A DNA stretch of 64,000 nt from a virus. The position numbers were made by a program, and so were the translations under genes. Location of the stretch: the UHGV virus genome UHGV-0125821. The stretch is one strand, 5' to 3'. Position 1 is the stretch's first letter; every line of letters starts with the position of its first letter. The notes under the pieces are model-generated. The model was not told the DNA's origin. It ran no database searches and was given only the letters and a program-made list of their open reading frames with translations. Positions 721 through 64,000 of this stretch are shown here, piece by piece.

Positions 721-1047
721 ATGTTTGCAGATTATGAAAATCTGGCTGTAGTAGTCATAACATCCCTACTAAGTGGAACCGGCGTATTCCTTCTCGGAGT
801 TAGAGATGGGCGCATTTCTGCGTCCCTGCTCAATCTTGCGAGTGAATTGTTTACTGCGGTAACAGCCGGGCTTGCGGGGTATGGGGTGGCGGTTAGCCAA
901 GAATGGCCTGAAGGTATCATTTTCTGCGTTGTTCTGATTGCCAGTAACAACGGTAGTGAAATTTTACAGGGCTTGAAGTCCAGAGCTAGTAACGTCTTGA
1001 ATCTCTTAAGCGTAATAGCGAATGGGGGAAAAGGTGGAGAGAAATAA
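721..1047 (+). CDS. Small membrane protein, holin-like (LydA-position gene of a P1-type late operon)
   Basis: 108 aa with about three hydrophobic helices; first gene of an operon divergent from cin, matching the P1 lydA-lydB-darA layout. Call is by position and topology only. Confidence 0.4.
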   Translation: MFADYENLAVVVITSLLSGTGVFLLGVRDGRISASLLNLASELFTAVTAGLAGYGVAVSQEWPEGIIFCVVLIASNNGSEILQGLKSRASNVLNLLSVIANGGKGGEK

Positions 1048-1493
1048 TGGGTAACTTTGGAAATTATTTCATTTTTATCATGGCATTTGTTGCCATCATT
1101 GACCGTTTCATTTTTCGTCGCAAGAGTGTTGAGATTTTGAGTATTGGTGACGCTGTAGTGAAAGAATCCGCTATAGCATTTCCTGTTTCGCTACGTGTTA
1201 AGCGAAGCTGGGTCAGCAATGCTCAAATCGAATATTGGTTGCAAGACCTGAAAAATCCATCTGTGGTTATTTCAGGGAAAACGCGACCAGTTGACGCCTC
1301 AAAACGCGGTGAGAGAGAAGAGTATTTGCTCATCGATACGAAATATCTTGAGCCAACGAAGTGGGATCTGAAAGTCACATTGACTAACGGTAACTGTCGA
1401 CTGAATCCGCTTTATCGCATTTTCCCTATCAATGACTGCATAGAGCGCCAGTTTACGATCGAAAAGCGTGAAGGAGACTGGGATGTCAAATAA
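1047..1493 (+). CDS. Hypothetical protein with N-terminal membrane anchor (LydB-position)
   Basis: 148 aa; start overlaps the upstream stop; hydrophobic N-terminus. Confidence 0.4.
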   Translation: MGNFGNYFIFIMAFVAIIDRFIFRRKSVEILSIGDAVVKESAIAFPVSLRVKRSWVSNAQIEYWLQDLKNPSVVISGKTRPVDASKRGEREEYLLIDTKYLEPTKWDLKVTLTNGNCRLNPLYRIFPINDCIERQFTIEKREGDWDVK

Positions 1494-2103
1494 GAATAAT
1501 TATGTTCTTCTTAGTTATGATGAGTTAAACGAAAAGGGGCTGGCAAAACTCGTCAAAGAAATCAGCAAAGGTGGTTACAAGATAGCGAGGGTGATCCCTG
1601 CAAGTAATGGCAGGAAGAAAGATGGGATCATGACGCGCACATTTACCCTTATTGGTATTGATGAACAGACAATGGAAGTTCAGGTTAACGATACCGGTGA
1701 TATATCTGGGATCAAACTGAATGGTAAAACAGTACCGTTCAAGCCAGTAAAAACAATGTCGGCTTTGGGGCAATCTCTTGCGGCTTTATTTAATCGCGGA
1801 TCAACTTCTTTCCAGAAGTCATTAGCTCGAAAACTTGCTCGTGCAGCAAAAAATATTGATGACGGAAATAAGAAGCGGCAGGGAGTTAAATCTAACGCTC
1901 AGAAATTAGCTGAAGCGAAAGAATCACGTGATGCACTCCGTGAAGATATCGCTAATGCTAACGACAAACTGTCTAAACTCCAGAGCAAGTCAGACAAAGT
2001 AATGCAAGATACGGGTAACGTTAAAGCTGCCTTGTCTCAGGAAGTAGCTAAGACACGTGCTCTTAAAGAAGAAATCGCGCGCCTGGAGGATGAGCATGAT
2101 TAA
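1483..2103 (+). CDS. Hypothetical coiled-coil protein in the dar-like operon
   Basis: ATG at 1483 preceded by AAGGAG; C-terminal half predicted coiled coil; translationally coupled to the next gene. Confidence 0.5.
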   Translation: MSNKNNYVLLSYDELNEKGLAKLVKEISKGGYKIARVIPASNGRKKDGIMTRTFTLIGIDEQTMEVQVNDTGDISGIKLNGKTVPFKPVKTMSALGQSLAALFNRGSTSFQKSLARKLARAAKNIDDGNKKRQGVKSNAQKLAEAKESRDALREDIANANDKLSKLQSKSDKVMQDTGNVKAALSQEVAKTRALKEEIARLEDEHD

Positions 2104-4021
2104 CAATCCTTTACGAATTAATATTCAGTCTACTTTTGCTGATACGATCCCCGGCTATGTGCCAAGTCGCTGGTCTTCAGAAGAATTAAGCGAAGATGAC
2201 CTGATTTTTGAGGCGGCGACCTTAGAAGATATTGAGCTTGCCTATATGGGCAATGAAATTCTGGTTGTGTCTGACGAAGCTATGTTTGAGTCCATAACTA
2301 CAACCAGAATTCGGTTAGCTCAAACAATGCGAGCTTTCGTCCGTGCGCTGAATCGTGGCCTGAATGGTACGAATATTATGGCAGGGACTGATGAAGCCGG
2401 GACCGATGAAAATGGACGTAATTGTATTGGTGGTGCGATTATCGGTCGTGTACGTCGGGTAGCTAATATCCCTGTTTTGACCGCGCAGATACCGCTTACT
2501 GACGGGCAGAGTACAAGCATAATTTTCCACTCTCCAACAGCTGACGGGGCAAAAATAAAGAGTAACGACGAGCTTGTTGCATTTCAGTTTTTACTTAATA
2601 AGCGTAACGTAACTCACGTTGTCGCCCCGATTGGTGGGAGAGATGTTTCTTTAAGCCAGGTATGCCAGGCGCTATCTAATTTGATTGAGCGTAACAGCGA
2701 AAAATTTAAGAAAGCAAAAGAGCGCCAGGACAAAATGAAGGCAGATATTGAGAGTTATCTCAATGAAGCAGATAAACTGGCAGAAGAACGGTCAATAATG
2801 ATTGATCAGGTGGACGTTGCGCAACGTGGGCTGACTGAAAAGCGTGCTGCTCTTACGGAGATGCAAAAAAAACTTGATGCCCAGAAAGCCATCAACGAGG
2901 AATTACAAGAAAAACGCGATAAATTGTTGTCTGCTAAAGGTGAAAAAACGAAGGAACGAGCGTTTAGTGACCAGCTGCGACATGTAAAACATAATCTTGC
3001 CATTGACGGAAAAACAGTGCTGGATAATGGCGCTGAAGTTAATTATATCACGTCCGGCAGTGACAATTTCGTTACGATAGTAGCACCTGAAGGTAAATTC
3101 AGTATTGATGCCAGTGCTGTCAAAGGAGGCAGTTTGGCAGATGCTGCAACCAAATTACTTAAAGCCTACCGAGAGCATAACGCAGATAAATATAAAGTTG
3201 ATGTGTTACCAGGCCAGCAGGAAGACCCCGAACCACCACAGACAGACCCCGAGACGAACCCAGTATCACAACCAGAGAGCCAGGATGTAGGTAAATACCA
3301 CTATGCACTTCAATCTCGCCCGGCTGGTGTTGGTGCTGTGCCGGATGGAAATAAAGCCGTGCTTGATCGTCCTGACCAGGCTGATCAGTATTACGAATAT
3401 GCTCGTCACGGTATCATTACGTATGACCGTAAACTGACAGATGAAGAAGTCAGCCAGTACGAGTTGCTCTATCTTCCTGATGAAGATGAGCTGAAAGATT
3501 TTGCAGGCCAATTGGTTGTGTCCAGCATGTCGAAACATATTGATGGCTATGTAGACCTGTTTGGCAGTGACCTGAAAACATTCAAGGCGCAAGTGAAAAT
3601 TCTTTTCCGCAAAGCGTTTCCAAACGTGGCGTATCCACTTGGTGATGGGGAGAACCTTTTCATTATGGACGTGTATAACGCCCTTCAAAATCATTCAAGC
3701 GAAGTAAAAACAGAGCATGTGGTTGAGCCGGAATCACAACCACAACCAGCACCAGAACAGGAGCCGGAGCCAGAAGAAGCTGGTGAATCAGCAAGTGAAG
3801 CTGATCAGGAGGCAGATAAAGCACTGGAGTACCTGAAATCCGTGCCGGAGCAGTTTACATCCCGCGATCTGACGGTCATCAGTGCTGAACTTGATCATGT
3901 GCAGGAAGCAGCAAACGCTCTAATCAGCGCAGGTCGATACGACGAGAACGAAGCCACTGTTGGTGCAGCAGTTGACTACCTGATCAACATTCTGGCTGAA
4001 ATTCAGCAGGGAGGTGCTTAA
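2096..4021 (+). CDS. Large internal head/antirestriction-type protein (DarA-position; about 641 aa)
   Basis: Size and operon position match P1 DarA; ATG at 2096 follows a GGAGG; acidic Pro/Glu-rich linkers. I do not recognise the sequence itself, so the name is positional. Confidence 0.45.
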   Translation: MINNPLRINIQSTFADTIPGYVPSRWSSEELSEDDLIFEAATLEDIELAYMGNEILVVSDEAMFESITTTRIRLAQTMRAFVRALNRGLNGTNIMAGTDEAGTDENGRNCIGGAIIGRVRRVANIPVLTAQIPLTDGQSTSIIFHSPTADGAKIKSNDELVAFQFLLNKRNVTHVVAPIGGRDVSLSQVCQALSNLIERNSEKFKKAKERQDKMKADIESYLNEADKLAEERSIMIDQVDVAQRGLTEKRAALTEMQKKLDAQKAINEELQEKRDKLLSAKGEKTKERAFSDQLRHVKHNLAIDGKTVLDNGAEVNYITSGSDNFVTIVAPEGKFSIDASAVKGGSLADAATKLLKAYREHNADKYKVDVLPGQQEDPEPPQTDPETNPVSQPESQDVGKYHYALQSRPAGVGAVPDGNKAVLDRPDQADQYYEYARHGIITYDRKLTDEEVSQYELLYLPDEDELKDFAGQLVVSSMSKHIDGYVDLFGSDLKTFKAQVKILFRKAFPNVAYPLGDGENLFIMDVYNALQNHSSEVKTEHVVEPESQPQPAPEQEPEPEEAGESASEADQEADKALEYLKSVPEQFTSRDLTVISAELDHVQEAANALISAGRYDENEATVGAAVDYLINILAEIQQGGA

Positions 4022-4389
4022 TGACCATCTCTGTTTTAGACCGCCTGAAATTAGGTAAAGAGCTATCAGATCTAATGCAGGCGCAGAAAACTGCGCCAGT
4101 ATTGCAACGCGTCACCATTGGTAAGCAGATTGTTGATGTGATGCTGAAATTGGGCCTGGGGACTGCCGCGCAACCGGCAGCGGAACCGCAACAACAGACT
4201 GATCCTGTTGTAGATGAAGTCCCTAAGATAGTGACTGACTTCCTGGGCGGTGTCTTCACAAAGTCCACACAAATGGAATTTATTGATGCGCTGCGTGGGA
4301 TCTCAAACTATGTTGGCGAGTTCCTTACGTTGGAGCAGGCTAAAGAGCAGACCATAAGCTGGGTGAAAGCTAACGGTTATGCCGGGTAA
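4021..4389 (+). CDS. Hypothetical protein (dar-like operon)
   Basis: 122-aa ORF; ATG overlaps the upstream stop (TAATG). Confidence 0.5.
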   Translation: MTISVLDRLKLGKELSDLMQAQKTAPVLQRVTIGKQIVDVMLKLGLGTAAQPAAEPQQQTDPVVDEVPKIVTDFLGGVFTKSTQMEFIDALRGISNYVGEFLTLEQAKEQTISWVKANGYAG

Positions 4390-4471
4390 TCAAAAGGGGC
4401 TGAAATGCCCCTTTCACTTATCTGTTCTCACATAAATCACACACTTTTTACACTCACAGCTTTCTCTATAG

Positions 4472-5869
4472 TTGGAGTGTATTTTGAACAAATCAGTTAC
4501 TTCTGCGCTTTCCGGGGCCACAGATATTAACAGCGTCATTGCTCTGGTTTCTTCATTAGAGAGGAAAGAAACACGCCTGGGGCGAAGTAGCTACGTAGTC
4601 ACCAGCAAAGGTGCAGAGGTAAAGACGGCTTTTAAGGTCGTTGATGCCAGCAGTCTGATCATTTCGAACAACCTTGACGGTACGATTAACCCGGCCTTCC
4701 CGGAAGAACTCCAACCACGAGATCGTACCCGGTTATCCAGCAAACTCCAGGTTAACCGTATTGCCTCCAATTTACGCCCGGCACAATTAACGGATTCCGG
4801 TATGAGCAGCCACGGAGCGCCGATAGTTGGTCCGGACAACGTTGTTGAATCCGGCAACGGAAGGAGTATGGGTATCTGGCGTGCCTATGAGCAAGGACAG
4901 GCGGATGAGTATCGCCAGTACCTGATCGACCATGCGAAAGAGTTTGGTCTGAATCCTGACGAAATTTCGCAAATGTCTATGCCCGTACTGGTGCGAGAAA
5001 GACTCACAGATGTAGACCGCGCTCAATTTGCCCGCGATTCAAACATTAGCGATCTGCAAGAGATGGCAGCAAGTGAAAAAGCGTATGCGGATGCGCAATT
5101 TCTCACTGAGAGCGTCATGGCGCTATTTAATCCTTCAGATGATGGAAATCTGCTGGCGCGGTCCAATGATGCGTTTATTCGTGCGTTTTTGCGCGAAATT
5201 GGCGATACAGCGACAGCAGGCTTGCTTACTGCCGATGGGCGTCCCACGAAACAGCTTATCGATCGCATCCAGAATGCAATTTTTGCCAAAGCGTACAAGG
5301 ATGAAAGGCTTGTTCGGCTGGTGTCGGAAGAGCCAGATCCGGAAATGCGTAATATCCTGACCGCATTAAATACGGCAGCCAGCGATTTTGCGCAAATGCA
5401 GTCGCTGTCTGGCGACGCTCACCATGACGCAGTAACAGGCTTAGTGGACGGTATAGAGCAGGTTAATGGCCTGGATACACAGGCGATAGCAGCACTCCAG
5501 GAAGCAATTAATCTTGTACGTGAAGCCAAAGACAACGGTCAGGCCGTTGAAGAAGTGATCGCCCAAAGGGGGTTATTCGGCGACAGTACACCGGAAGCTG
5601 AGGCATTGGCGTTATTCATCGTAGCAAATAATCGCAGTGCGAAGCGTATGGGGGCAGCATTCAAAAAAATGGCGCAAAAAATCAACGACGAGCTGACTCA
5701 TAAACAACAGGCATTGGGCGATATGTTCGGCGGTGGCGATGTTGATCTGCGTCGTATTTTGTCTGCTGTATCTGATGAAATTGAGGGTGAATTTGGCGAA
5801 GGGAAAGGTCTGAACTTTGCTATGTTTGAAAATTCTACAGATCTAAATAATTGCCGTACGGAAAACTAA
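4472..5869 (+). CDS. Hypothetical protein (dar-like operon)
   Basis: 465-aa ORF with TTG start in the track; an in-frame TTG at 4484 has a better-spaced GGAG. Confidence 0.55.
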   Translation: MECILNKSVTSALSGATDINSVIALVSSLERKETRLGRSSYVVTSKGAEVKTAFKVVDASSLIISNNLDGTINPAFPEELQPRDRTRLSSKLQVNRIASNLRPAQLTDSGMSSHGAPIVGPDNVVESGNGRSMGIWRAYEQGQADEYRQYLIDHAKEFGLNPDEISQMSMPVLVRERLTDVDRAQFARDSNISDLQEMAASEKAYADAQFLTESVMALFNPSDDGNLLARSNDAFIRAFLREIGDTATAGLLTADGRPTKQLIDRIQNAIFAKAYKDERLVRLVSEEPDPEMRNILTALNTAASDFAQMQSLSGDAHHDAVTGLVDGIEQVNGLDTQAIAALQEAINLVREAKDNGQAVEEVIAQRGLFGDSTPEAEALALFIVANNRSAKRMGAAFKKMAQKINDELTHKQQALGDMFGGGDVDLRRILSAVSDEIEGEFGEGKGLNFAMFENSTDLNNCRTEN

Positions 5870-5933
5870 ACCAACCGCTGAAATCACATACTGATTATGC
5901 TGCCGCAAAACTGGAAACAATTTGCGGTGATTC

Positions 5934-7616
5934 ATGGCAACGAAAGACAAAAACAAAGGCTTTCTGTCAGCATTGAAGAAAGCCTTCAACGGTGGTGATG
6001 TTACGCCCGCCGATCCGGTCGTTTTTACGAGCGGACATAGTGTCGTTGCTCGTTCCGGCCTGTCTGCTTTACGTCCAGGCATCCTGGGGAGCAATAGCGA
6101 TGGCATGACGAGTGAAGCAGATTCAATTTCTTTATCCGCTGAACTGCCCGGCGAGCGCCTGCAAAAGTACAACATCCTGGAAACGATGGCTAAAAGCCCG
6201 ACTATCTCGACGGCTTTAAATATTCACATTGCACATGCGCTTGCGCCTTCAAAAAAAACCGGACAAGCATTCATCCTTTCGCCAAAGGATGGTTCCGATG
6301 CCGAGGCAGTAAGTAGATGTGAAGAGTTAACCGCTGATTTGGGGGCGATGATTAATGACGGACTTCCTTCATGGGCCATGATTATGGCGATCTTTGGGGT
6401 GTCTTATGTCCGACCTTATGCTGAACAGGGCAGGGGGATAACAGGCATTGAGTCCAGTTATTACACTCTGCCACACTTCGTCCAGGAGTTTTATCGTGGT
6501 AGCCAGCTGGTAGGTTTCAGTGGTGATTACATTCTGGATACGCATAGTTTGCGCAGAGTAATAACCGAACCGTGGAATCTGGTTTCCATGAAAAATCCCT
6601 ATTGGACGCCACAGCATAAAGTTATTCCGGTTAGCTACGGCACAAAAGGGTACTCACTGTTAAGTGATCAGGCTGATAAGCCGTTAATGGAGACGCAGAA
6701 TTACGGAACTTCATTCCTGGAATACAGCTATGAACCTTACCTTAATTTATGTGCTTCGCTCGCCGCGCTGAAATCAACGCGAAATAATGCAGCCAAAATT
6801 GACCGCCTGATTGCTCTTACGACGAACACACTGGACCCGGTTAATGCGGCGAACTATACGCGTGGCGTCAGCCAGGCATTGAAGCGTCATAGTGACCTGG
6901 TGGCGCAAAGGTCGATTAATGCCAACGCTATTCCGACTGTGCTTAACCATCTGATACCTGTTATGGGAGACGGGAAGAACGGCATCACCATTGATACGCA
7001 ATCCATACCCGCAGATATCAGTGGTATTGAAGACGTTATGTTTCACCTCCGGCAGCTTGCTGCAAGCCTCGGCATTGACGCAACAATGCTTGGCTGGGCT
7101 GATCAGATGAGCGGAGGGCTTGGAGAAGGCGGCTGGCAGCAAACTGCTATCCAGGCTGCATTGCGTGCGAACTGGATCAGACAGGCCGCCCAGCGAACTA
7201 TTTATCGGCTTCTGGACATTCACCTCGCTTATAAATATGGCAAGGTTTACACCGAAACAAACCGCCCTTATGACGTGCAATTCAACTCAATGAACACAGC
7301 TATCCAGGAAGAGGAAAACCGAGAACTGGATGCACGCGCCAACTTTGTTGCTGTCATCTCCCAAATTATGGACCAGATCCAGAACAACCCGAAACTGGCT
7401 GGTAGCGACGCGTTTATGCGTTATCTGTTCACTGAGCAGTTGCACATCGACGATGACACTCTCAACACCATGATCAAAGAGTTTAAGGCGAATGAATCAG
7501 AGCAAAACAACGAGCATGGTATGTACGAATCCGCGCCGTTGTCGTCCGGTGACGATCCGGAAAACTGGACGCCAGAACAGTTAATAAACTTTGCAAAATT
7601 TGTGATGAGCAATTAA
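5934..7616 (+). CDS. Hypothetical protein (dar-like operon)
   Basis: 560-aa ORF on the same strand, tightly packed. Confidence 0.55.
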   Translation: MATKDKNKGFLSALKKAFNGGDVTPADPVVFTSGHSVVARSGLSALRPGILGSNSDGMTSEADSISLSAELPGERLQKYNILETMAKSPTISTALNIHIAHALAPSKKTGQAFILSPKDGSDAEAVSRCEELTADLGAMINDGLPSWAMIMAIFGVSYVRPYAEQGRGITGIESSYYTLPHFVQEFYRGSQLVGFSGDYILDTHSLRRVITEPWNLVSMKNPYWTPQHKVIPVSYGTKGYSLLSDQADKPLMETQNYGTSFLEYSYEPYLNLCASLAALKSTRNNAAKIDRLIALTTNTLDPVNAANYTRGVSQALKRHSDLVAQRSINANAIPTVLNHLIPVMGDGKNGITIDTQSIPADISGIEDVMFHLRQLAASLGIDATMLGWADQMSGGLGEGGWQQTAIQAALRANWIRQAAQRTIYRLLDIHLAYKYGKVYTETNRPYDVQFNSMNTAIQEEENRELDARANFVAVISQIMDQIQNNPKLAGSDAFMRYLFTEQLHIDDDTLNTMIKEFKANESEQNNEHGMYESAPLSSGDDPENWTPEQLINFAKFVMSN

Positions 7617-7629
7617 CCGGAGGGAAATA

Positions 7630-8628
7630 ATGCAATCACTGAATACTGTTACGGATCGCTTCTCCCTGGTAGAGAAAATCCGCAAACACACACCGCAGAA
7701 CAACCGAAATTACGTCATTCAGTCGGTACGAGACACATTCAACTCGCCAGAAACAAAAGAGCGTATCGCGCTGGGTGAGATGTATGGTTATTACGGTCAT
7801 GGTCGCCGGGCGATGCACTATAACAAAACGAAAAGCCTGAACTTGCCGGAAGTCTCTGTTGTGATGGTAGATGGGAAGCCTGTTGTATTGGAGAACGTGC
7901 CGTCAAACAGGACTATCGACATTTCGATTGACGACAACGGCATTGTTACTCATACGCAGGAAATACTGGATACAGACACCGGGCGTATTGTTCAGGGCAT
8001 GATTAATTCTGGTGCTGGTGGTTGGTCGTGGGCTACATCTGGTCCAGATTCATCGGTATCCCTGGTAAAGTCTTTCCACGGCTTTGATTACGTAACTGTG
8101 CCTAACTATATCAGCCTCGACAAGAGAAGCCTGATGCTTGAATCAGCAGAAGAGCGCGATGCGGCTATTCATGCAGCACTTATCGAACAAGGTTTTACCG
8201 ATAACGCTGCTACGGATCTGGTTCACCACTTTTCAGCAATGAAAAATCAGCAAGCCATGCTCGAATCTGCACATCGTGAAGCCCTGGAATCAGAATTGAT
8301 GCTCCTTGAAGTGGAAAACATACAGCTTCGAGATAAGCTGCGCGCTCAAACAGCGATGATGGAAAGCCAGGGGGAAAATGCAAAGCAATGCCGCCGGATT
8401 TTGCGTGAAGCTATCCAGGAAATGCCTGTTTTTATCAGCGCAGAACAGCGCCGGGCGCTCTGCCGTATGCAGTCTGAAGATGATGCCCGCATAGTGGCTG
8501 CGATGCTTGAATCTCTTGGGGCAAATGCTACTTATGGCTTACCGGTATCAGGCAAGAAAGAACCAGAGTTATCACCGAAGGAGAACAAAAACACCACCCC
8601 GTTACTCTTCGTTTCCAGAAGGGGGTAA
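7630..8628 (+). CDS. Hypothetical protein (dar-like operon, last gene)
   Basis: 332-aa ORF starting 14 nt after the previous stop. Confidence 0.55.
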   Translation: MQSLNTVTDRFSLVEKIRKHTPQNNRNYVIQSVRDTFNSPETKERIALGEMYGYYGHGRRAMHYNKTKSLNLPEVSVVMVDGKPVVLENVPSNRTIDISIDDNGIVTHTQEILDTDTGRIVQGMINSGAGGWSWATSGPDSSVSLVKSFHGFDYVTVPNYISLDKRSLMLESAEERDAAIHAALIEQGFTDNAATDLVHHFSAMKNQQAMLESAHREALESELMLLEVENIQLRDKLRAQTAMMESQGENAKQCRRILREAIQEMPVFISAEQRRALCRMQSEDDARIVAAMLESLGANATYGLPVSGKKEPELSPKENKNTTPLLFVSRRG

Positions 8629-9873: not shown

Positions 9874-10078
9874 ATCGGAATGTATGATCTGCATCATCGA
9901 CTGAAGTCATCCATTGCTGAAATTTTTAGTTGATCTTCCATGTTTTCAGGCTTATATTCATGTCGTCGTAGCAAATTCTGCGACCGGGTTTAGCAGCCTG
10001 AATACGAATGCGGACAACCGCAGATATCCGATATTGCGGTATTTTTGTGTCCGTAAAACCACGTTACGCCCGAATTAT

Positions 10079-10155
10079 GGTGGGGCGTGATGGGGAGGCT
10101 TCGGCCTGCTGGTTTCATTCGTGCCAGTCTGCTAACCCCGTCACGTCCTGCCACC
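10079..10155 (+). ncRNA. c4-like antisense immunity RNA (candidate)
   Basis: Long closing stem GGTGGGGCGTGA...TCACGTCCTGCCACC around an AGGC-TTCG-GCCT hairpin; internal CTGCTAAC is complementary to GTTTAGCAGC repeats at about 9988 and 10157, the second just upstream of the icd-like RBS. Boundaries approximate. Confidence 0.35.
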
Positions 10156-10205
10156 CGTTTAGCAGCGGGGCGCAGGTTGTTAAACCTACGAATGAGGCCG
10201 TAACT

Positions 10206-48637: not shown

Positions 48638-48742
48638 AATACTGACTGTTGCGCCCTGGCATTATCGTGGGGTATATTTCTACGGCACCTTAGAAAAACG
48701 GGTGCCGGGATTGGAACCCCGGATAATGCAAAAGGCGACACA

Positions 48743-48766
48743 GACGCCGAAAGCGTCTTTTTTTTT
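48743..48766 (+). terminator. Rho-independent terminator
   Basis: GACGC-CGAAA-GCGTC followed by nine T. Confidence 0.75.
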
Positions 48767-48815
48767 GTGTCATGCCATCGCACAGCCATACGTAGCGTTT
48801 AGCTCAGAGATCAAT

Positions 48816-48891
48816 GGTAGTGCTGGCTGGGCTGCCGAAAGGCAGGCCGGTTCCCTTTTGCGCCGGTAGTTCCAACCCAGTCAGTGCTACC
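48816..48891 (+). ncRNA. Second c4-like antisense RNA (candidate)
   Basis: Stem GGTAGTGCTGG...CCAGTCAGTGCTACC around a CTGCC-GAAA-GGCAG hairpin; internal GGTAGTTCCAA is complementary to TTGGAAC...GGTAGC around the RBS of the icd-like ORF. Boundaries approximate. Confidence 0.3.
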
Positions 48892-48951
48892 GCCATTGAG
48901 ATTGGAACCTCACGCGGTAGCTCCTTAAATTAGCAAAAGGAGGCTGCCAAT

Positions 48952-58482: not shown

Positions 58483-59388
58483 ATGAGATCAGTCGCTTTC
58501 AAAAATATCTTCATCTATCGTCTTTCACGCGAAGTTAGCTGGGATACTGCAGAAGTAAATGCAGCCCTTAGCAAGTTTGTGTTTACCCCATGCGGTTCTC
58601 AGGATATGGCTAAAGCTGGTTGGACCTCCGTTCTTGGTGACAACCTCACCCATGAATACCAGGGTTTTCTTCTGATACAGCATAAACGAGAGGAAAAAAT
58701 CCTACCCTCTCAAGTGCTCAAAGAAGAGTTACAGAAAAAAATCCTGACACTTGAAGAAGAGCAAGACAGAAAGCTGAAGAAGACTGAAAAAGATTCGCTG
58801 AAGGATGAAGTGCTTCACTCTCTGCTTCCTCGTGCTTTCACGAGAAAATCAGTCGCTAAAATCCTGATAGACCGAAGCAATCATCTGGTTTTTGTCGAGG
58901 CCAGCAGTGCTAAAAAAGCAGAGGATCAGCTGGCTTTGTTACGGAAATCGCTTGGCAGCTTGCCCGTTGTCCCCTTCTCTCCGAAAGACCCATTAGAACT
59001 GACCATCACTGGCTGGATTAAAAATGGCTTCCCGAACGGTTTCCGTGCCGGTGAGGAAGCGACCTTAAAAGCATTGCTTGATGATGGCGGCGCGGTCCGC
59101 TGCAAAAAAGTGGACCTGCTATCCGACGAGATCATGAGTCATATAGAAGCTGGTAAGGTTGCAACCACAGTTGCGGTTAACTGGCAAGACCGTGCATTTT
59201 TCAGACTGAATGACGATATGAGTATCAAGGCTTTGTCGTTCAGCGACGAATTGTACGACCAGAACGACGATATTGATCGAGAGGATGTTGCGCAACGATT
59301 TGACGCTGACTTTATCCTGTTTACTGCTGAATTATCCGCGATGTTCACTTCGCTGGTGGAGGCCGTTGGTGGTGAAGCTGAACGTTAA
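58483..59388 (+). CDS. rdgC: Recombination-associated protein RdgC homolog
   Basis: Aligns with E. coli RdgC over its length ([14 protein letters not shown]; [21 protein letters not shown]; [17 protein letters not shown]). Confidence 0.85.
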
Positions 59389-59401
59389 CAATAGACCTCT
59401 G

Positions 59402-60052
59402 ATGGTGAGTCTTTGTGATTTCACGGGGAAAATGGTCGCCCCCTGGCTGGAGCATGGTATAGATGCTGTTATCGTCGATCCACAACACGCAGAGACCAGA
59501 GATGAGCTGATGCAATCAGGCGCAGTTCTGACACGTATCAGTGCGATTATCGATAGTGATGAAGTTTATGCTTTTCTCCGAAATAATTTACAACGTATTG
59601 TGTTTTTAGCTGGTTTTCCGCCGTGCACGGACCTTGCTGTTTCCGGTGCGCGCTGGTTTGCGCATAAGGCTGACAAAGATCCGTTTTTCCAGTTCAAAGC
59701 AATGCAGGTTGTCTGGCAGTGTTATGACATTGCAAAGATGATCGGTTGTCCGTACATGATTGAAAATCCGGTCAGCAAAATATCGACATTCTGGCGTAAG
59801 CCAGATCACATCTTTCACCCTTACTTCTTCACTGCATATTGTCAGGAAGATAACTACACCAAAAAAACATGCCTCTGGAGCGGCCAGGGCTTTGTCATGC
59901 CTGATGCCCTAATGGACGAATCATTAGGCAAGCCAGATAACAGAATCCATGCCGCGCCACCAGGGCCTGACAGGGCTAATTTTCGAAGTGCTACTCCACA
60001 TGGATTCGCAAAGGCAGTTTTCGAAGCGAATAAGGGGGTGCTCTATGAGTAA
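59402..60052 (+). CDS. C5-cytosine methyltransferase-like protein (short; motifs IV and VI only)
   Basis: AGFPPCTDLAVSGA (PCQ-like catalytic Cys) and MIENPVS (ENV-like); only about 216 aa with no obvious target-recognition domain. Confidence 0.45.
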   Translation: MVSLCDFTGKMVAPWLEHGIDAVIVDPQHAETRDELMQSGAVLTRISAIIDSDEVYAFLRNNLQRIVFLAGFPPCTDLAVSGARWFAHKADKDPFFQFKAMQVVWQCYDIAKMIGCPYMIENPVSKISTFWRKPDHIFHPYFFTAYCQEDNYTKKTCLWSGQGFVMPDALMDESLGKPDNRIHAAPPGPDRANFRSATPHGFAKAVFEANKGVLYE

Positions 60053-60950
60053 ATCTATAGCAAGCATAGCCATAGAAAAACAGGATACGATGGCTGAAAT
60101 TAGCTATATGCGCACCATTCGGACTCCGGATGAATATGAGCGTCCGATATTCAAATGGGTAGGTGGTAAATTCTCAGAATTGCCTACAGTGCTTGAGCAT
60201 CTACCACACGGTAAGCGGTTAATAGAACCATTCGTTGGTGGCGGTTCCGTATTTACGAATGCAGGATTTTGCCACAACCTGCTTAATGATATTAACGGTG
60301 ACCTGATTAACTTCTATCAGACATTGCAGCGAGAAGGACATTCGCTCGTCACGCTGTCATATAGTTTTTTCCAAAATTACAACAACGCTGACGCTTACCT
60401 CGAAGTGCGTGAGGCATTTAACAGAGGAAAGTATGACCAGCTACATCATGCTGCCGCCTTTTTGTACCTTAATCGGCACTGTTTTAATGGCGTAACGCGG
60501 TACAACCAAAATGGCGAGTTCAACGTGGGGTATGGCAAATACAAAGCGCCCTACTTCCCACATGCAGAGATGGAGGCATTTTTGGCTGATGACGTACTCA
60601 AAAACACGTCCTTTGTATCAGGTGACTTTGCTGGCGTCATCGAGGCGGCTGGTGAAGGCGATGTGATTTTTTGCGATCCGCCGTATGAACCGCTGCCGGA
60701 TACAGAAGGGTTTACCAGTTATTCAGGAAATAGCTTCCGTTTCGACGAACAGAAACGGCTGGTATCTCTATTGGTGGAAGCCCACCAGCGCGGCGCTAAG
60801 GTAGTGATAACAAATAGTGGTGCGCCAAACATCCGTGAACTATATGAAGGAAACGGGTTTAAAGTACATCATATGGCAGCCAGACGGTCGGTGTCCTGCA
60901 AGGCGTCAACACGTGTAGTTGCTAACGATATAATTGCAATAATGAAGTAA
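60045..60950 (+). CDS. N6-adenine DNA methyltransferase, Dam/DpnM family
   Basis: Motif I EPFVGGGSVF and motif IV FCDPPYEP; ATG at 60045 preceded by AAGGGGG and overlapping the upstream stop. Confidence 0.8.
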   Translation: MSKSIASIAIEKQDTMAEISYMRTIRTPDEYERPIFKWVGGKFSELPTVLEHLPHGKRLIEPFVGGGSVFTNAGFCHNLLNDINGDLINFYQTLQREGHSLVTLSYSFFQNYNNADAYLEVREAFNRGKYDQLHHAAAFLYLNRHCFNGVTRYNQNGEFNVGYGKYKAPYFPHAEMEAFLADDVLKNTSFVSGDFAGVIEAAGEGDVIFCDPPYEPLPDTEGFTSYSGNSFRFDEQKRLVSLLVEAHQRGAKVVITNSGAPNIRELYEGNGFKVHHMAARRSVSCKASTRVVANDIIAIMK

Positions 60951-60985
60951 AAAACGCCGCAGTAGCGGCGTTTACTTTTTTATGT
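60949..60985. terminator. Bidirectional Rho-independent terminator between the Dam-like gene and glnS
   Basis: AAAAACGCCGC-AGTA-GCGGCGTTT hairpin flanked by A-run and T-run. Confidence 0.75.
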
Positions 60986-60998
60986 GGCGAAATACCTA

Positions 60999-62660
60999 TT
61001 AACCTAACTTCGCCCAGGTATCACGCAGCCCAACGGTGCGGTTAAATACCGGTTTTTCCGCCGTAGAATGGCGGCTGTCGAGGCAGAAATAACCTTCACG
61101 CTCAAACTGGAATGCTTTACCCGCTACCGCTTCTTTCAGCGACGGTTCAGCAAAACCCTGTTTGATCACCAGCGATTCCGGGTTAATCACCGACAGGAAA
61201 TCATCCGCAGCACCTGGGTTCGGCACGCTGAACAGACGATCGTACAGGCGGATTTCAACCGGCAGCGCATGTGCCGCGCTCACCCAGTGAATAACGCCTT
61301 TCACTTTACGACCATCTGCCGGATCTTTGCTTAAGGTGTCGGCGTCATAAGTACAGAAGATGGTGGTGATATTGCCTTCGGCATCTTTCTCCACGCGTTC
61401 AGCCTTAATGACGTAAGCATTACGCAGACGCACTTCTTTACCCAGCACCAGACGTTTGTACTGCTTGTTAGCTTCTTCGCGGAAATCGGCGCGGTCGATC
61501 CAAATCTCACCGCTAAACGGCACCTGACGGCTACCCATTTCCGGTTTGTTCGGATGGTTCGGCATGGTGACCATTTCGCCTTCGCCCTGGTAGTTTTCGA
61601 TAACCAGTTTCACCGGATCGATAACCGCCATTGCGCGCGGCGCATTTTCGTTGAGATCTTCACGGATGCAGGATTCCAGCGACGCCATCTCAATGGTGTT
61701 GTCCTGCTTGGTCACGCCGATGCGTTTGCAGAACTCACGAATAGAAGCCGCAGTGTAACCACGACGACGCAGACCGGAAATGGTCGGCATACGCGGGTCA
61801 TCCCAGCCTTCAACGTGCTTGTCGGTCACCAGCAGGTTCAGCTTACGCTTGGACATCACGGTGTATTCCAGATTCAGGCGCGAGAATTCGTACTGGCGCG
61901 GGTGAACAGGAATGGTGATGTTGTCCAGCACCCAGTCGTACAGGCGACGGTTGTCCTGGAACTCAAGCGTACACAGAGAGTGCGTAATACCTTCCAGCGC
62001 ATCGCTGATGCAATGGGTGAAGTCGTACATCGGGTAGATGCACCACTTGTTGCCAGTCTGGTGGTGTTCAGCAAATTTAATGCGGTACAGCACCGGATCG
62101 CGCATTACGATAAATGGCGACGCCATGTCGATTTTCGCACGCAGGCAGGCTTTACCTTCTTCAAAACCACCGGTACGCATTTTTTCGAACAGCGCCAGGT
62201 TCTCTTCAACGCTGCGGTCGCGGTACGGGCTGTTTTTACCCGGCTGCGTCAGGGTGCCGCGGTATTCGCGGATCTGTTCCGGCGTCAGTTCATCAACGTA
62301 CGCCAGGCCTTTATTGATCAGTTCGATCGCATAGGCGTGGAGCTGATCAAAATAATCGGAGGAGTAACGGACGTTACCAGACCAGTGAAAACCTAACCAC
62401 TCAACGTCGTTTTTGATCGACTCAACATACTCGATATCTTCTTTTACCGGGTTAGTGTCGTCGAAACGCAGGTTGCACTGGCCTTTATAGTCCTGGGCGA
62501 TCCCGAAGTTCAGGCAGATAGATTTCGCATGACCAATATGCAGATAGCCATTCGGTTCCGGCGGGAAACGGGTATGTACTGTGGTGTGCTTACCACTGGC
62601 CAGATCTTCATCGATGATCTGACGAATAAAGTTAGTCGGGCGGGCTTCTGCCTCACTCAT
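60999..62660 (-). CDS. glnS: Glutaminyl-tRNA synthetase
   Basis: 553-aa product essentially identical to E. coli GlnS as I recall it ([18 protein letters not shown] motif; VMSKR KMSKS motif). Confidence 0.95.
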
Positions 62661-62847
62661 TGTGGATTCCTCAAAGCGTAAACTACGTATAACAGCGTAT
62701 GATCTTATAAGCCGAATAGGCTGACAACCACTAGTTGATTAGAAATTGCTTTCTATCGTTATTTCAATAATGAGCTTTTTCATGAAGCCCACTTTTGCGC
62801 ATAAGTAAATTAATGACAAATGGTACACAATTGGAACCAAAAAGGAT

Positions 62848-62895
62848 GTAAAGGTGCACCAAATTAGTGGTGTATTGGTGCACCTTTGGTTCAAG
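62848..62895 (-). terminator. Perfect 11-bp inverted repeat (AAAGGTGCACC...GGTGCACCTTT): putative par-operon terminator or operator
   Basis: 16-nt loop; on the minus strand it is followed by TTTTT. Confidence 0.4.
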
Positions 62896-62928
62896 ACTTT
62901 TTAAGTTCTAAAACCAACCTGAAAGACT

Positions 62929-63216
62929 TTATTTTGCTTCCTCAGACTCCGCTAACATGAGGATAGCATGGCGGATCATATTCAATTTGCTGCGATTATG
63001 CTTTTTACTTAACGCATCAAGTACCTGGTACTCGTATTCATTGAAACCAACACGAATAGATTTAAAATCACGTGGAGCGTCCTTATCGAGCACTTTGTTG
63101 TCTTCTGGTTGCTCACCTGGCACCAAATCAGCCTTACTGGCAAAATCCTCAATTCGGCGTTCAAGATCGGGGTCTTTTACTTCGGGGGCTTTTACCGATT
63201 TACGAGGCTTAATCAC
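62929..63216 (-). CDS. ParG/ParB-like ribbon-helix-helix centromere-binding protein
   Basis: 95 aa; C-terminal RHH-like KSIRVGFNEYEYQVLDALSKKHNRSKLNMIRHAIL; start overlaps the parA stop. Confidence 0.6.
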   Translation of the reverse strand: MIKPRKSVKAPEVKDPDLERRIEDFASKADLVPGEQPEDNKVLDKDAPRDFKSIRVGFNEYEYQVLDALSKKHNRSKLNMIRHAILMLAESEEAK

Positions 63217-63850
63217 TTAATAACTCCTTAACCAACATCTGGATTTCACCTTTAGCTTTCCCGTTGTCCATCTCAACAACGCCCTTCCCTTCAGCCATGC
63301 AATCGCGGTAAACCTTACGATCACGAATGATGGTTTTCAGCAACTTCAGTTGCGGATATTCAGCCAGGTACTCTTTGGCCTCATTGGTTTCATTCACAAC
63401 CGGATTGGATGGGGCCATTGTTAAGACTGCGAACGCCTTAATGCTAGGATTAGGCATCAGGTCCAAAGCCTCTTCAAACACTTCAACAAAGTGTGCCAGC
63501 GTGTCTAAATCTGGTTGAGATGGTCTGAATGGGACCAACACAATATCTGCAGCGGTTATGCCTGTACGCATCTCTTTGCTATCGCGCCCGGCTGTATCAA
63601 CAACTACAAATTCATAACGCTTATCCAGATCGAGAAGTGTTTCTCGAATATTACCAAACTTCTGGACACAATGAATAACAGGAGAAACCTCTGCCGTGTT
63701 ACGGTCAGCTGCCCAGCGGGCAGCTGTTCCTTGCTTGTCTGCATCTAGTAACACTACATCCTTATTTGCGCGGGCAAGCTCCGCACAGATGTTTACGCTT
63801 GTGGTTGATTTTCCACAGCCACCTTTTTGGCTGACTACCAATATAATCAT
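63209..63850 (-). CDS. parA: ParA/ParF-type small partition ATPase (type Ib)
   Basis: Deviant Walker A KGGCGKST near the N-terminus; start at 63850 (MIILVVSQ) with GAGGA upstream; the track start at 63880 is less likely. Confidence 0.8.
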   Translation of the reverse strand: MIILVVSQKGGCGKSTTSVNICAELARANKDVVLLDADKQGTAARWAADRNTAEVSPVIHCVQKFGNIRETLLDLDKRYEFVVVDTAGRDSKEMRTGITAADIVLVPFRPSQPDLDTLAHFVEVFEEALDLMPNPSIKAFAVLTMAPSNPVVNETNEAKEYLAEYPQLKLLKTIIRDRKVYRDCMAEGKGVVEMDNGKAKGEIQMLVKELLSD

Positions 63851-64000
63851 ATCCGTTCCTCGGTGTGATTTTGGTATCAAAACGGTTCCAGATAAGAGCC
63901 TTTTTGATGCGGGACAGGCTCTATAATGGAGTCATGAATGTTTGGCAAAGTATAACATCAATCAGACCAAATACACCTTATATTGCATCCTATTTAACAC

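Follow-up and report, generated by a model that had tools for sequence, protein, structure and literature searches.

The glnS gene of a D6-like phage-plasmid: a probable lineage cargo gene whose likeness to the host copy is best explained by later recombination

The presence of glnS on D6-like phage-plasmids is already known. The nearest described system to the locus analyzed here is the glnS gene (orf62, gp065) of phage D6, together with that of related plasmid prophages, among them pYU39_89 (Gilcrease & Casjens 2018; Silva et al., PLoS One 2019, PMC6799933). In D6-like genomes the gene has been named a moron of unknown role, with the speculation that it serves host fitness or plasmid maintenance, and cysS of the plasmid pBT1 was proposed as the model (PMC6799933). 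In pBT1 of Salmonella Typhimurium ST313 D23580, an essential class I aminoacyl-tRNA synthetase (aaRS) of the Enterobacteriaceae is likewise plasmid-borne (Canals et al. 2019, PMC6333337). The two cases differ in that the plasmid cysS was shown to be required, with the chromosomal copy silenced; in addition, pBT1 is not a phage-plasmid. A literature search joining phage-plasmids and aminoacyl-tRNA synthetases found nothing beyond the works cited here.

Plasmids also carry auxiliary resistance synthetases, such as mupA (IleRS2), in which the second aaRS copy is a divergent, inhibitor-insensitive paralogue. The GlnRS described below does not belong to this type, as it is >99% identical to the housekeeping enzyme and its substitutions are either conservative or natural polymorphisms. 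A role as an inhibitor-resistant auxiliary synthetase was therefore excluded.

The third point of reference is the chromosomal E. coli gene (b0680), which is flanked by nagE and chiP in K-12. According to Plumbridge & Soll 1987, as cited in PMC12369378, it is derepressed by deletion of dam or by mutation of the Dam sites in its promoter, and the dam effect has been reproduced at +1.08 log2, corresponding to ∼2-fold repression by Dam (PMC12369378).

Here we analyze a glnS copy in a 64,000-nucleotide stretch of viral DNA (UHGV virus genome UHGV-0125821), referred to in full as the window. We regard this copy, with a probability of about 0.82, as the known cargo gene, or "moron," that marks P1-related phage-plasmids of the D6 lineage. 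In this reading it arrived in a single insertion, encodes a canonical GlnRS, is under strong purifying selection, and repeatedly exchanges sequence with the host gene.

The glnS gene and the element that carries it

The gene encodes 553 amino acids in one intact reading frame. The product matches the NCBIfam equivalog TIGR00440 (glnS) with 1066.9 bits (cutoff 425.8) over profile positions 1–524 of 524 and contains the catalytic domain PF00749 (tRNA-synt_1c) and the anticodon-binding domains PF03950 and PF20974. Score and domain composition thus assign it to the glutaminyl-tRNA synthetases of class I. Alignment to the solved structure of E. coli GlnRS (PDB code 1o0b) covers 553 of 553 residues and reveals only the substitutions A163T, D510E, and V552L and the lack of Glu-554. 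The first of these is a common polymorphism of chromosomal glnS. The motifs LHIGHAKS (HIGH) and YTVMSKRKL (KMSKS-type, VMSKR) are identical to those of 1o0b. With 550 of 553 residues shared with the chromosomal E. coli enzyme, the window GlnRS is inferred to aminoacylate tRNA-Gln, as the characterized enzyme does at >99% identity. Across phage-plasmid alleles, GlnRS carries 3–8 conservative substitutions per 553 residues. The first-pass annotation, which had proposed a complete gene nearly identical to E. coli GlnS at the protein level, is borne out in both respects and at the positions that it gave.

The same annotation had placed the gene between a methyltransferase gene and a partition cassette, and correctly so: a Dam-family methylase gene lies on one side and orf61-parA on the other (Table 1). 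It was also right that nagE and chiP are missing around the window gene. Its statement that glnS possesses its own flanking terminators holds in part. The hairpin downstream of glnS is a terminator, but one that is shared with the convergent methylase gene, and the inverted repeat upstream of glnS belongs to the end of the par operon. This repeat is probably the par-operon terminator and would insulate glnS from upstream transcription, although it could also be a protein-binding site.

Table 1. Features of the glnS region, with positions in the window
Feature	Position	Strand	Basis
Dam-family N6-adenine DNA methyltransferase gene, convergent with glnS	59949..60950	+	ORF, profile/domain matches
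Bidirectional terminator hairpin, 9-bp stem, between methylase gene and glnS	60952..60973	.	
Approximate span of the insertion, judged against relatives without glnS	60975..62926	.	Empty-site comparison
glnS CDS, glutaminyl-tRNA synthetase, intact, 553 aa, ATG start	60999..62660	-	ORF, profile, alignment
Segment homologous to chromosomal E. coli glnS	61003..62728	-	Alignment
glnS interior (CDS nt 151-1500), chromosomal allele type in the window	61161..62510	-	
Position of the relic block (221 nt, CDS nt ~199-420), E. coli-type sequence in the window	62241..62462	-	
Three synonymous signature sites (CDS nt 87 T, 105 A, 129 T)	62532..62574	-	
Captured native sigma-70 promoter (TTGTCA, 17-nt spacer, GATCAT)	62699..62727	-	Sequence match
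Perfect 13-nt inverted repeat AAAGGTGCACCAA / TTGGTGCACCTTT, 12-nt loop, followed by a T-run	62850..62887	-	
orf61 homologue (95 aa, no family match) and ParA partition ATPase gene	62929..63880	-	ORFs, profiles
orf61 homologue	62929..63216	-	
ParA ATPase gene	63209..63880	-	

With chromosomal b0680 the gene shares the promoter hexamers, the Dam site GATC within the −10 hexamer (62701–62704), and the Shine-Dalgarno sequence; hexamers and Shine-Dalgarno sequence are identical in all phage-plasmid alleles aligned. Given this match, the plasmid promoter should inherit Dam control. Apart from its neighbors, b0680 differs in its terminator and in a C terminus that reads VGE* instead of the LG* of the phage-plasmid genes.

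The window contains P1-type tail genes, and its tRNA genes (tRNA-Asn, -Thr, -Ser, and -Met), two C4 antisense RNAs, and isrK fit a phage-plasmid of the P1/D6 type. The same four tRNAs are present in D6. A tRNA scan of the window found no tRNA-Gln.

Escherichia phage D6 aligns with the 2.8-kb glnS region of the window at 98.0% identity and 100% coverage, in the same gene order and with the gene annotated as orf62 or glutamine--tRNA ligase. Place, junctions, promoter, terminator, and C-terminal change of glnS are the same in both. The entire region is also present in 98 PLSDB plasmids, which are ∼90 kb in size, non-mobilizable, and found mostly in E. coli, but also in Salmonella and Shigella. 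Plasmids in 70 of 5,426 complete E. coli genomes carry it, as do several IMG/VR contigs in the D6 gene order. Hence, the question raised by the first-pass annotation, whether related phage-plasmids possess glnS at the same place, can be answered in the affirmative for D6 and ∼100 plasmids. In the complete E. coli set (5,426 genomes), the par flank that is specific to phage-plasmids lies on 94 plasmids from as many genomes and on 0 chromosomes; roughly 77–81 of these 94 D6-family plasmids have glnS.

More distant viral GlnRS genes (48–85% amino acid identity) and a glnS gene on a Citrobacter plasmid lie without D6-like neighbors. These viral genes (loci L012 and L016–L020) and the Citrobacter gene were considered as instances of the same case and set aside as unrelated.

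A single insertion with mosaic alleles

Homology to chromosomal glnS starts about 68–77 nt 5′ of the ATG and ends ∼3 codons before the chromosomal stop, so that the phage-plasmid enzyme terminates in WAKLG* where the chromosomal enzyme reads WAKVGE*. WAKLG* is found in 20 of 20 good-quality phage-plasmid copies. Except for scattered point differences, both junction sequences match across the glnS-bearing copies examined, including D6. The window copy possesses all three marks of the D6 cargo gene, namely the location between methylase and orf61-parA, the D6 junctions, and the altered C terminus.

We joined the two flanks of glnS and searched PLSDB with the resulting query. The flanks are contiguous in ∼20 plasmids, which belong to the same replicon cluster as the glnS-bearing elements. 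The two that were inspected, pPSS-08-1_2 and pEC361_3, show the order rdgC-methylase-[ ]-orf61-parA-parM. In both, the methylase stop is followed by a hairpin, ∼110 nt, and the orf61 stop, where the window has ∼1.95 kb. The hairpin of these relatives occupies the same position as that of the window, but has a different stem. Flank identity is 83–93% for the glnS-less relatives, compared with 96–99.5% among glnS-bearing elements. By this comparison, glnS is a clean insertion limited to one subclade.

In the scenario that we propose, a ∼1.7-kb chromosomal fragment was inserted once into an ancestral phage-plasmid, between the terminator of the Dam methylase gene and the end of the par operon. 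This fragment comprised the glnS promoter, the 5′-untranslated region, and all but the last three codons. A single capture is shown by the two junctions and the new C terminus, which all descendants have in common.

To compare alleles we used an alignment (A2) of 17 good phage-plasmid alleles, nine E. coli chromosomal alleles spanning the identity range, and the genes of E. ruysiae, Salmonella, and others. Phage-plasmid alleles differ from each other by ≤5%. The window and D6 alleles differ at 53 of 1,662 nt (96.8% identity), and some chromosomal alleles are closer to the window allele (98.6%) than D6 is. Bases that are fixed in the phage-plasmid alleles and absent from the chromosomal panel occur only at the ends (−87 to −55, −1, +87, +105, +129, and from +1653); those up to +129 are also the fixed differences to b0680. 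The three synonymous sites at 87, 105, and 129 serve as a signature, as all 17 tabulated phage-plasmid alleles have these bases and none of the nine E. coli chromosomal alleles of the panel does. The nucleotide comparison with chromosomal glnS, which the first-pass annotation had suggested as a check, thus confirms high identity (97.1% to K-12 and up to 98.6% to other chromosomal alleles over the CDS), with phage-plasmid bases kept at the ends.

The interior of the window gene is of a different type. A windowed nearest-allele analysis finds 0–2 differences per 150 nt to alleles of the O169/CB209 type, a haplotype that the closest relatives of the window also carry from about nt 150 to 1500, and the interior is 99.3–99.6% identical to 441 records, most of them chromosomal. 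D6, in contrast, keeps a divergent block of 221 nt, which we call the relic block, and has a K-12-like 3′ half, as does one Salmonella plasmid, whereas the window has lost the block. Complete E. coli genomes contain 76 plasmid-borne copies, of which ∼70 retain the relic block, as D6 does, and ∼5 share the converted state of the window allele. At ≥95% identity the block retrieves 71 records only, against the 76 plasmid copies. The ∼5,427 chromosomal copies are all 90–93% identical to it, and none of 5,425 E. coli genomes has the block on its chromosomal glnS. Against E. coli the block has a dS of 0.37–0.41; the corresponding values are 0.09 among E. coli alleles, 0.31 for E. coli versus E. ruysiae, and 0.08–0.16 for the remainder of the D6 gene. 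Among the species representatives compared, its nearest non-plasmid relatives are Escherichia at 91–93%, followed by Kluyvera at 87%; E. albertii, E. fergusonii, and E. marmotae do not appear in the 80 loci listed. A metagenome scan for a donor of the block returned phage-plasmid-linked contigs only.

In the simplest model, a single capture, not recent for the element, brought in an allele whose distance from E. coli was about that of a different Escherichia species, and host alleles then overwrote it piece by piece. Alternatively, the relic block could have been imported later from an unsampled Escherichia host instead of being ancestral captured sequence. With either polarity, the time of acquisition cannot be read from how closely the gene resembles E. 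coli glnS.

Further patches argue for repeated exchange. The glnS gene of pTB423 contains E. ruysiae-like patches, and recombination is detected among the phage-plasmid alleles alone (PHI p = 0.0005, Rmin 19). Because haplotypes are common to phage-plasmids and chromosomes, the alleles are shown, at the level of sequence, to be mosaics from repeated homologous recombination with resident chromosomal glnS. Exchange also seems to run from phage-plasmid to chromosome: the chromosomal gene of strain PEC1020 equals a phage-plasmid allele over nt 1–1505, including the three signature sites, whereas its upstream region and last 150 nt remain chromosomal. Chromosomal alleles with such a signature are rare.

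Plasmid and chromosomal glnS within one strain differ at 41 (98222), 42 (GF60), and 72 (KY1497) sites, indicating that conversion is occasional or episodic and not continuous; automatic homogenization within a host is ruled out by these numbers. Some allele sharing may also reflect exchange between phage-plasmids, given that their backbone, too, is a mosaic, in which the flanks are 82–100% identical to those of the window. For the same reason we dropped the argument that glnS, being more divergent than its flanks, must have been imported.

Phage-plasmid bases persist at both ends, where the flanking homology runs out, and in the relic block. The window allele is a heavily converted form, in which an ordinary E. 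coli chromosomal haplotype has replaced the relic block together with most of the gene interior. The best explanation for the near-identity of the window copy to the host gene is that it exchanged sequence with the chromosomal gene by homologous recombination after the capture.

Selection, function, and alternative readings

All 20 good-quality phage-plasmid glnS copies examined have intact reading frames, and dN/dS is 0.027 for the phage-plasmid alleles, 0.012 for the chromosomal panel, and 0.04 for the unconverted relic block. The phage-plasmid glnS carried in Salmonella is intact and 99.8% identical to that of D6, whereas the glnS gene of its host is only 85% identical, which makes the latter an improbable donor for conversion. 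Low dN/dS, intact reading frames, and the Salmonella copy together indicate a real constraint on the plasmid gene, and on this comparative basis strong purifying selection is shown. Part of the low dN/dS could nevertheless be borrowed from the chromosome through gene conversion. A further copy, that of pSa1423-90k (89% identity), was considered as a Salmonella-adapted allele; it contains many small indels, pointing to a poor assembly or a pseudogene, and was left out of the allele set.

The plasmid copy most probably provides an active GlnRS. Since the element encodes tRNA-Asn, -Thr, -Ser, and -Met, but no tRNA-Gln, this enzyme should charge the tRNA-Gln of the host. In lysogens, its own sigma-70 promoter should drive transcription of the gene, and the retained GATC in the −10 hexamer would let expression increase wherever the DNA is under-methylated, as in phases of rapid lytic replication.

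Beyond this, the plasmid gene might be a selected second GlnRS that takes part in two-way allelic exchange with the host gene and so moves alleles of an essential gene between strains, a reading that we put forward tentatively and consider rather unlikely in this full form. The gene may also raise the dosage of GlnRS, act as a host-dependence or backup module or, as contig OFLS01000123.1 (discussed below) would suggest, as an occasional site of homology for integration.

The dependence idea can be taken further: a functional plasmid GlnRS combined with down-regulation of the chromosomal copy would make loss of the plasmid costly. Such a retention module has its experimental precedent in pBT1, whose host carries a silent chromosomal cysS of unchanged sequence (PMC6333337), and it has been put forward for D6-like glnS (PMC6799933). 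The plasmid gene is moreover conserved, intact, equipped with its own promoter, and adjacent to the par operon; D6-like elements have also been reported to carry two toxin-antitoxin systems (PMC6799933). We consider this reading improbable, because ∼15% of the related phage-plasmids do without glnS, the chromosomal gene is kept in essentially every genome (5,428 chromosomal places in 5,425 genomes), and the three hosts checked (98222, GF60, and KY1497) have a chromosomal glnS gene and promoter that are both intact and ordinary. Taken by itself, the last observation is neutral, as it neither supports nor excludes host dependence.

Could the gene be a neutral passenger without benefit, kept intact solely through repair by conversion from chromosomal glnS? 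The recurrent exchange with chromosomal alleles, and the share of the low dN/dS that may be borrowed by this route, would be in keeping with it. However, conversion should be rare in Salmonella, with its 85% identical resident gene, and the copy found there is intact all the same. The relic block has escaped conversion and still shows a dN/dS of 0.04; 20 of 20 phage-plasmid reading frames are intact, and the non-homologous promoter-proximal and C-terminal parts of the junctions are conserved in all copies. A purely passive gene is therefore quite improbable.

A recent capture, in which the window phage-plasmid or a very recent ancestor took glnS from its current E. coli host, is very improbable. 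The first-pass annotation had drawn this conclusion from the near-identity of the two genes, and three residues plus the C terminus are indeed all that separates the protein from that of K-12, with the interior matching common chromosomal alleles as given above. Yet D6 and all other glnS-bearing copies examined have the same junctions, C terminus, and 5′ signature sites, and relatives hold a block with a dS of ∼0.4 that does not occur on the E. coli chromosomes searched. The greater divergence of the glnS-less relatives (83–93% in the flanks) fits an old insertion with an interior that was overwritten later. The argument from near-identity to recent acquisition is accordingly not supported, given the common junctions, the empty-site relatives, and the block with a dS of 0.37–0.41 in ∼70 of 76 copies.

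Equally doubtful is the view that glnS serves as portable homology, its 1.7 kb of near-identity permitting reversible RecA-dependent integration by a single crossover at chromosomal glnS. The metagenome contig OFLS01000123.1 has the structure expected of one junction of such an event: at least 6.7 kb of phage-plasmid DNA lead into a phage-plasmid-type glnS whose 3′ end is chromosomal and is followed by at least 4.1 kb of chromosome, the switch to chromosomal DNA falling within the last ∼50 nt of the gene. However, an assembler can produce this join from a common stretch of 50 identical nt, the reciprocal junction was not found in a metagenome scan, and none of the 94 D6-family elements found in complete E. 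coli genomes lies on a chromosome. The contig is thus a probable chimera and hints only remotely at integration. That these elements regularly live by Campbell integration at glnS finds no support, given the count of 0 of 94 and a single contig, OFLS01000123.1, that is indistinguishable from a chimera.

That the window itself is an assembly chimera or a junction with a chromosome or an integrated prophage, as the first-pass annotation had also considered, has a negligible chance, even though glnS is a repeat in hosts with both copies, ∼10 of 24 IMG/VR loci and the metagenome contig SKEN01000245.1 end inside the gene, and OFLS01000123.1 joins phage-plasmid to chromosomal DNA: both flanks of the window gene are phage-plasmid DNA and not chromosomal, the arrangement is not unique to this assembly but recurs in D6, in ∼100 closed circular plasmids, in 70 E. 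coli genomes, and in IMG/VR, and the par flank is chromosomal in 0 of 94 cases.

What the plasmid gene means for phage-plasmids and their hosts

The reading of glnS as cargo of the D6 lineage fits the finding of the first-pass annotation that a phage-plasmid carries a chromosome-derived housekeeping aaRS gene, as supported here by synteny with D6 and homology to chromosomal glnS. Because glnS on D6-like phage-plasmids was published before, our analysis adds no new kind of element. It refines the known system by a recombinational mosaic, by relatives with an empty site, and by a retained Dam-sensitive promoter.

The similarity of plasmid glnS to the host gene is maintained by recombination, which cautions against dating gene captures by identity alone. 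In practical terms, when a host carries one of these elements, the glnS repeat breaks or misjoins its assembly from short reads or metagenomes. The analysis also sharpens the question of what makes a temperate phage-plasmid maintain, under strong purifying selection, an almost exact copy of an essential host synthetase, for which the glnS-less sister group provides natural controls. If two-way exchange is true, a transmissible phage-plasmid would spread alleles of an essential housekeeping gene between strains.

Possible exchange and joining of glnS copies

In E. coli PEC1020, the chromosomal glnS (L127) is identical over CDS nucleotides 1-1505 to a phage-plasmid allele, as compared with pPEC1021-1 (L128). 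This stretch includes the synonymous phage-plasmid signature sites 87, 105, and 129; the sequence upstream of the gene and nucleotides 1506-1629 are still chromosomal. The pattern looks like a conversion tract that would have been transferred from phage-plasmid to chromosome. The phage-plasmid glnS of pTB423 (NZ_CP034790.1; L117), which is 95.1% identical to that of the window, contains patches that match E. ruysiae and not E. coli alleles, suggesting that pTB423 once resided in a cryptic-clade Escherichia host.

In the metagenome contig OFLS01000123.1 (L132; locus 767-7887), D6-like phage-plasmid DNA of at least 6.7 kb is joined to chromosomal DNA from downstream of glnS, on the chiP-fldA side, which spans at least 4.1 kb. 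The glnS at this join is of the phage-plasmid type up to nucleotide ∼1629-1652, and its last codons are chromosomal. The contig either shows one Campbell-type integration junction at glnS, or is a chimera created by metagenome assembly. Many IMG/VR viral contigs from isolate genomes (L014 and L021-L028) also end or start within glnS. These ends are repeat-induced assembly breaks in genomes where chromosomal and phage-plasmid copies coexist.

The glnS of the D6-like Salmonella sp. plasmid pSa1423-90k (L003; locus 4001-5645) exhibits numerous small indels at 89% identity. They probably stem from an uncorrected long-read assembly; that the gene is a pseudogene is less likely.

Sequence surroundings of glnS

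Both methylase-region ORFs (window 59273-60950) precede glnS and overlap in different frames. The Dam gene of close relatives is flagged in RefSeq as an N-terminally truncated pseudogene, and pKY1497_2 possesses a 2.6-kb methylase CDS at the corresponding position. The segment from rdgC to the methylase is only 93.4% identical to D6, whereas neighboring segments exceed 99%.

Between the glnS promoter and the par operon lies a perfect inverted repeat containing GGTGCACC, which is palindromic in itself. This element may be a terminator or a binding site for a partition or regulatory protein. Elsewhere in the window, one C4 antisense RNA locus features an a1/b1 target element and the other an isrK-like RNA. 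The two separate C4 loci suggest two P1-type immunity regions within the 64-kb window.

Coordinates of features in the window and in glnS-less relatives
Feature	Position	Arms
ORF without family match	window 59273..60052	
Dam-family ORF	window 59949..60950	
C4 antisense RNA locus	window 9952-10158	
C4 antisense RNA locus	window 48685-48897	
Perfect 13-nt inverted repeat	window 62850-62887	AAAGGTGCACCAA / TTGGTGCACCTTT
glnS-less relative NZ_AP027678.1 (L130)	locus ∼2100-2420	
glnS-less relative NZ_AP027414.1 (L131)	locus ∼2100-2420	

Other mobile synthetase genes and relatives without glnS

The conjugative Citrobacter cronae plasmid NZ_CP060445.1 (MOBP/MPF_I; L004, locus 1844-5668) carries adjacent cysS and glnS genes, adjoined by a HigB toxin gene. 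Its glnS is ∼86% identical to E. coli glnS, and the plasmid is a separate instance of plasmid-borne synthetase genes, unrelated to the D6-like glnS. Six IMG/VR viral contigs (L012 and L016-L020), one of them 159 kb long, encode GlnRS homologues with 48-85% amino acid identity. D6-like neighbors were found beside the GlnRS gene in none of the six, so GlnRS genes were acquired independently by other phages.

Within rep_cluster_1704, ∼20 PLSDB plasmids lack glnS and share the replicon cluster and gene order of the glnS carriers. They contradict the published claim that glnS is present in every D6-like genome, and serve as natural glnS-less controls.
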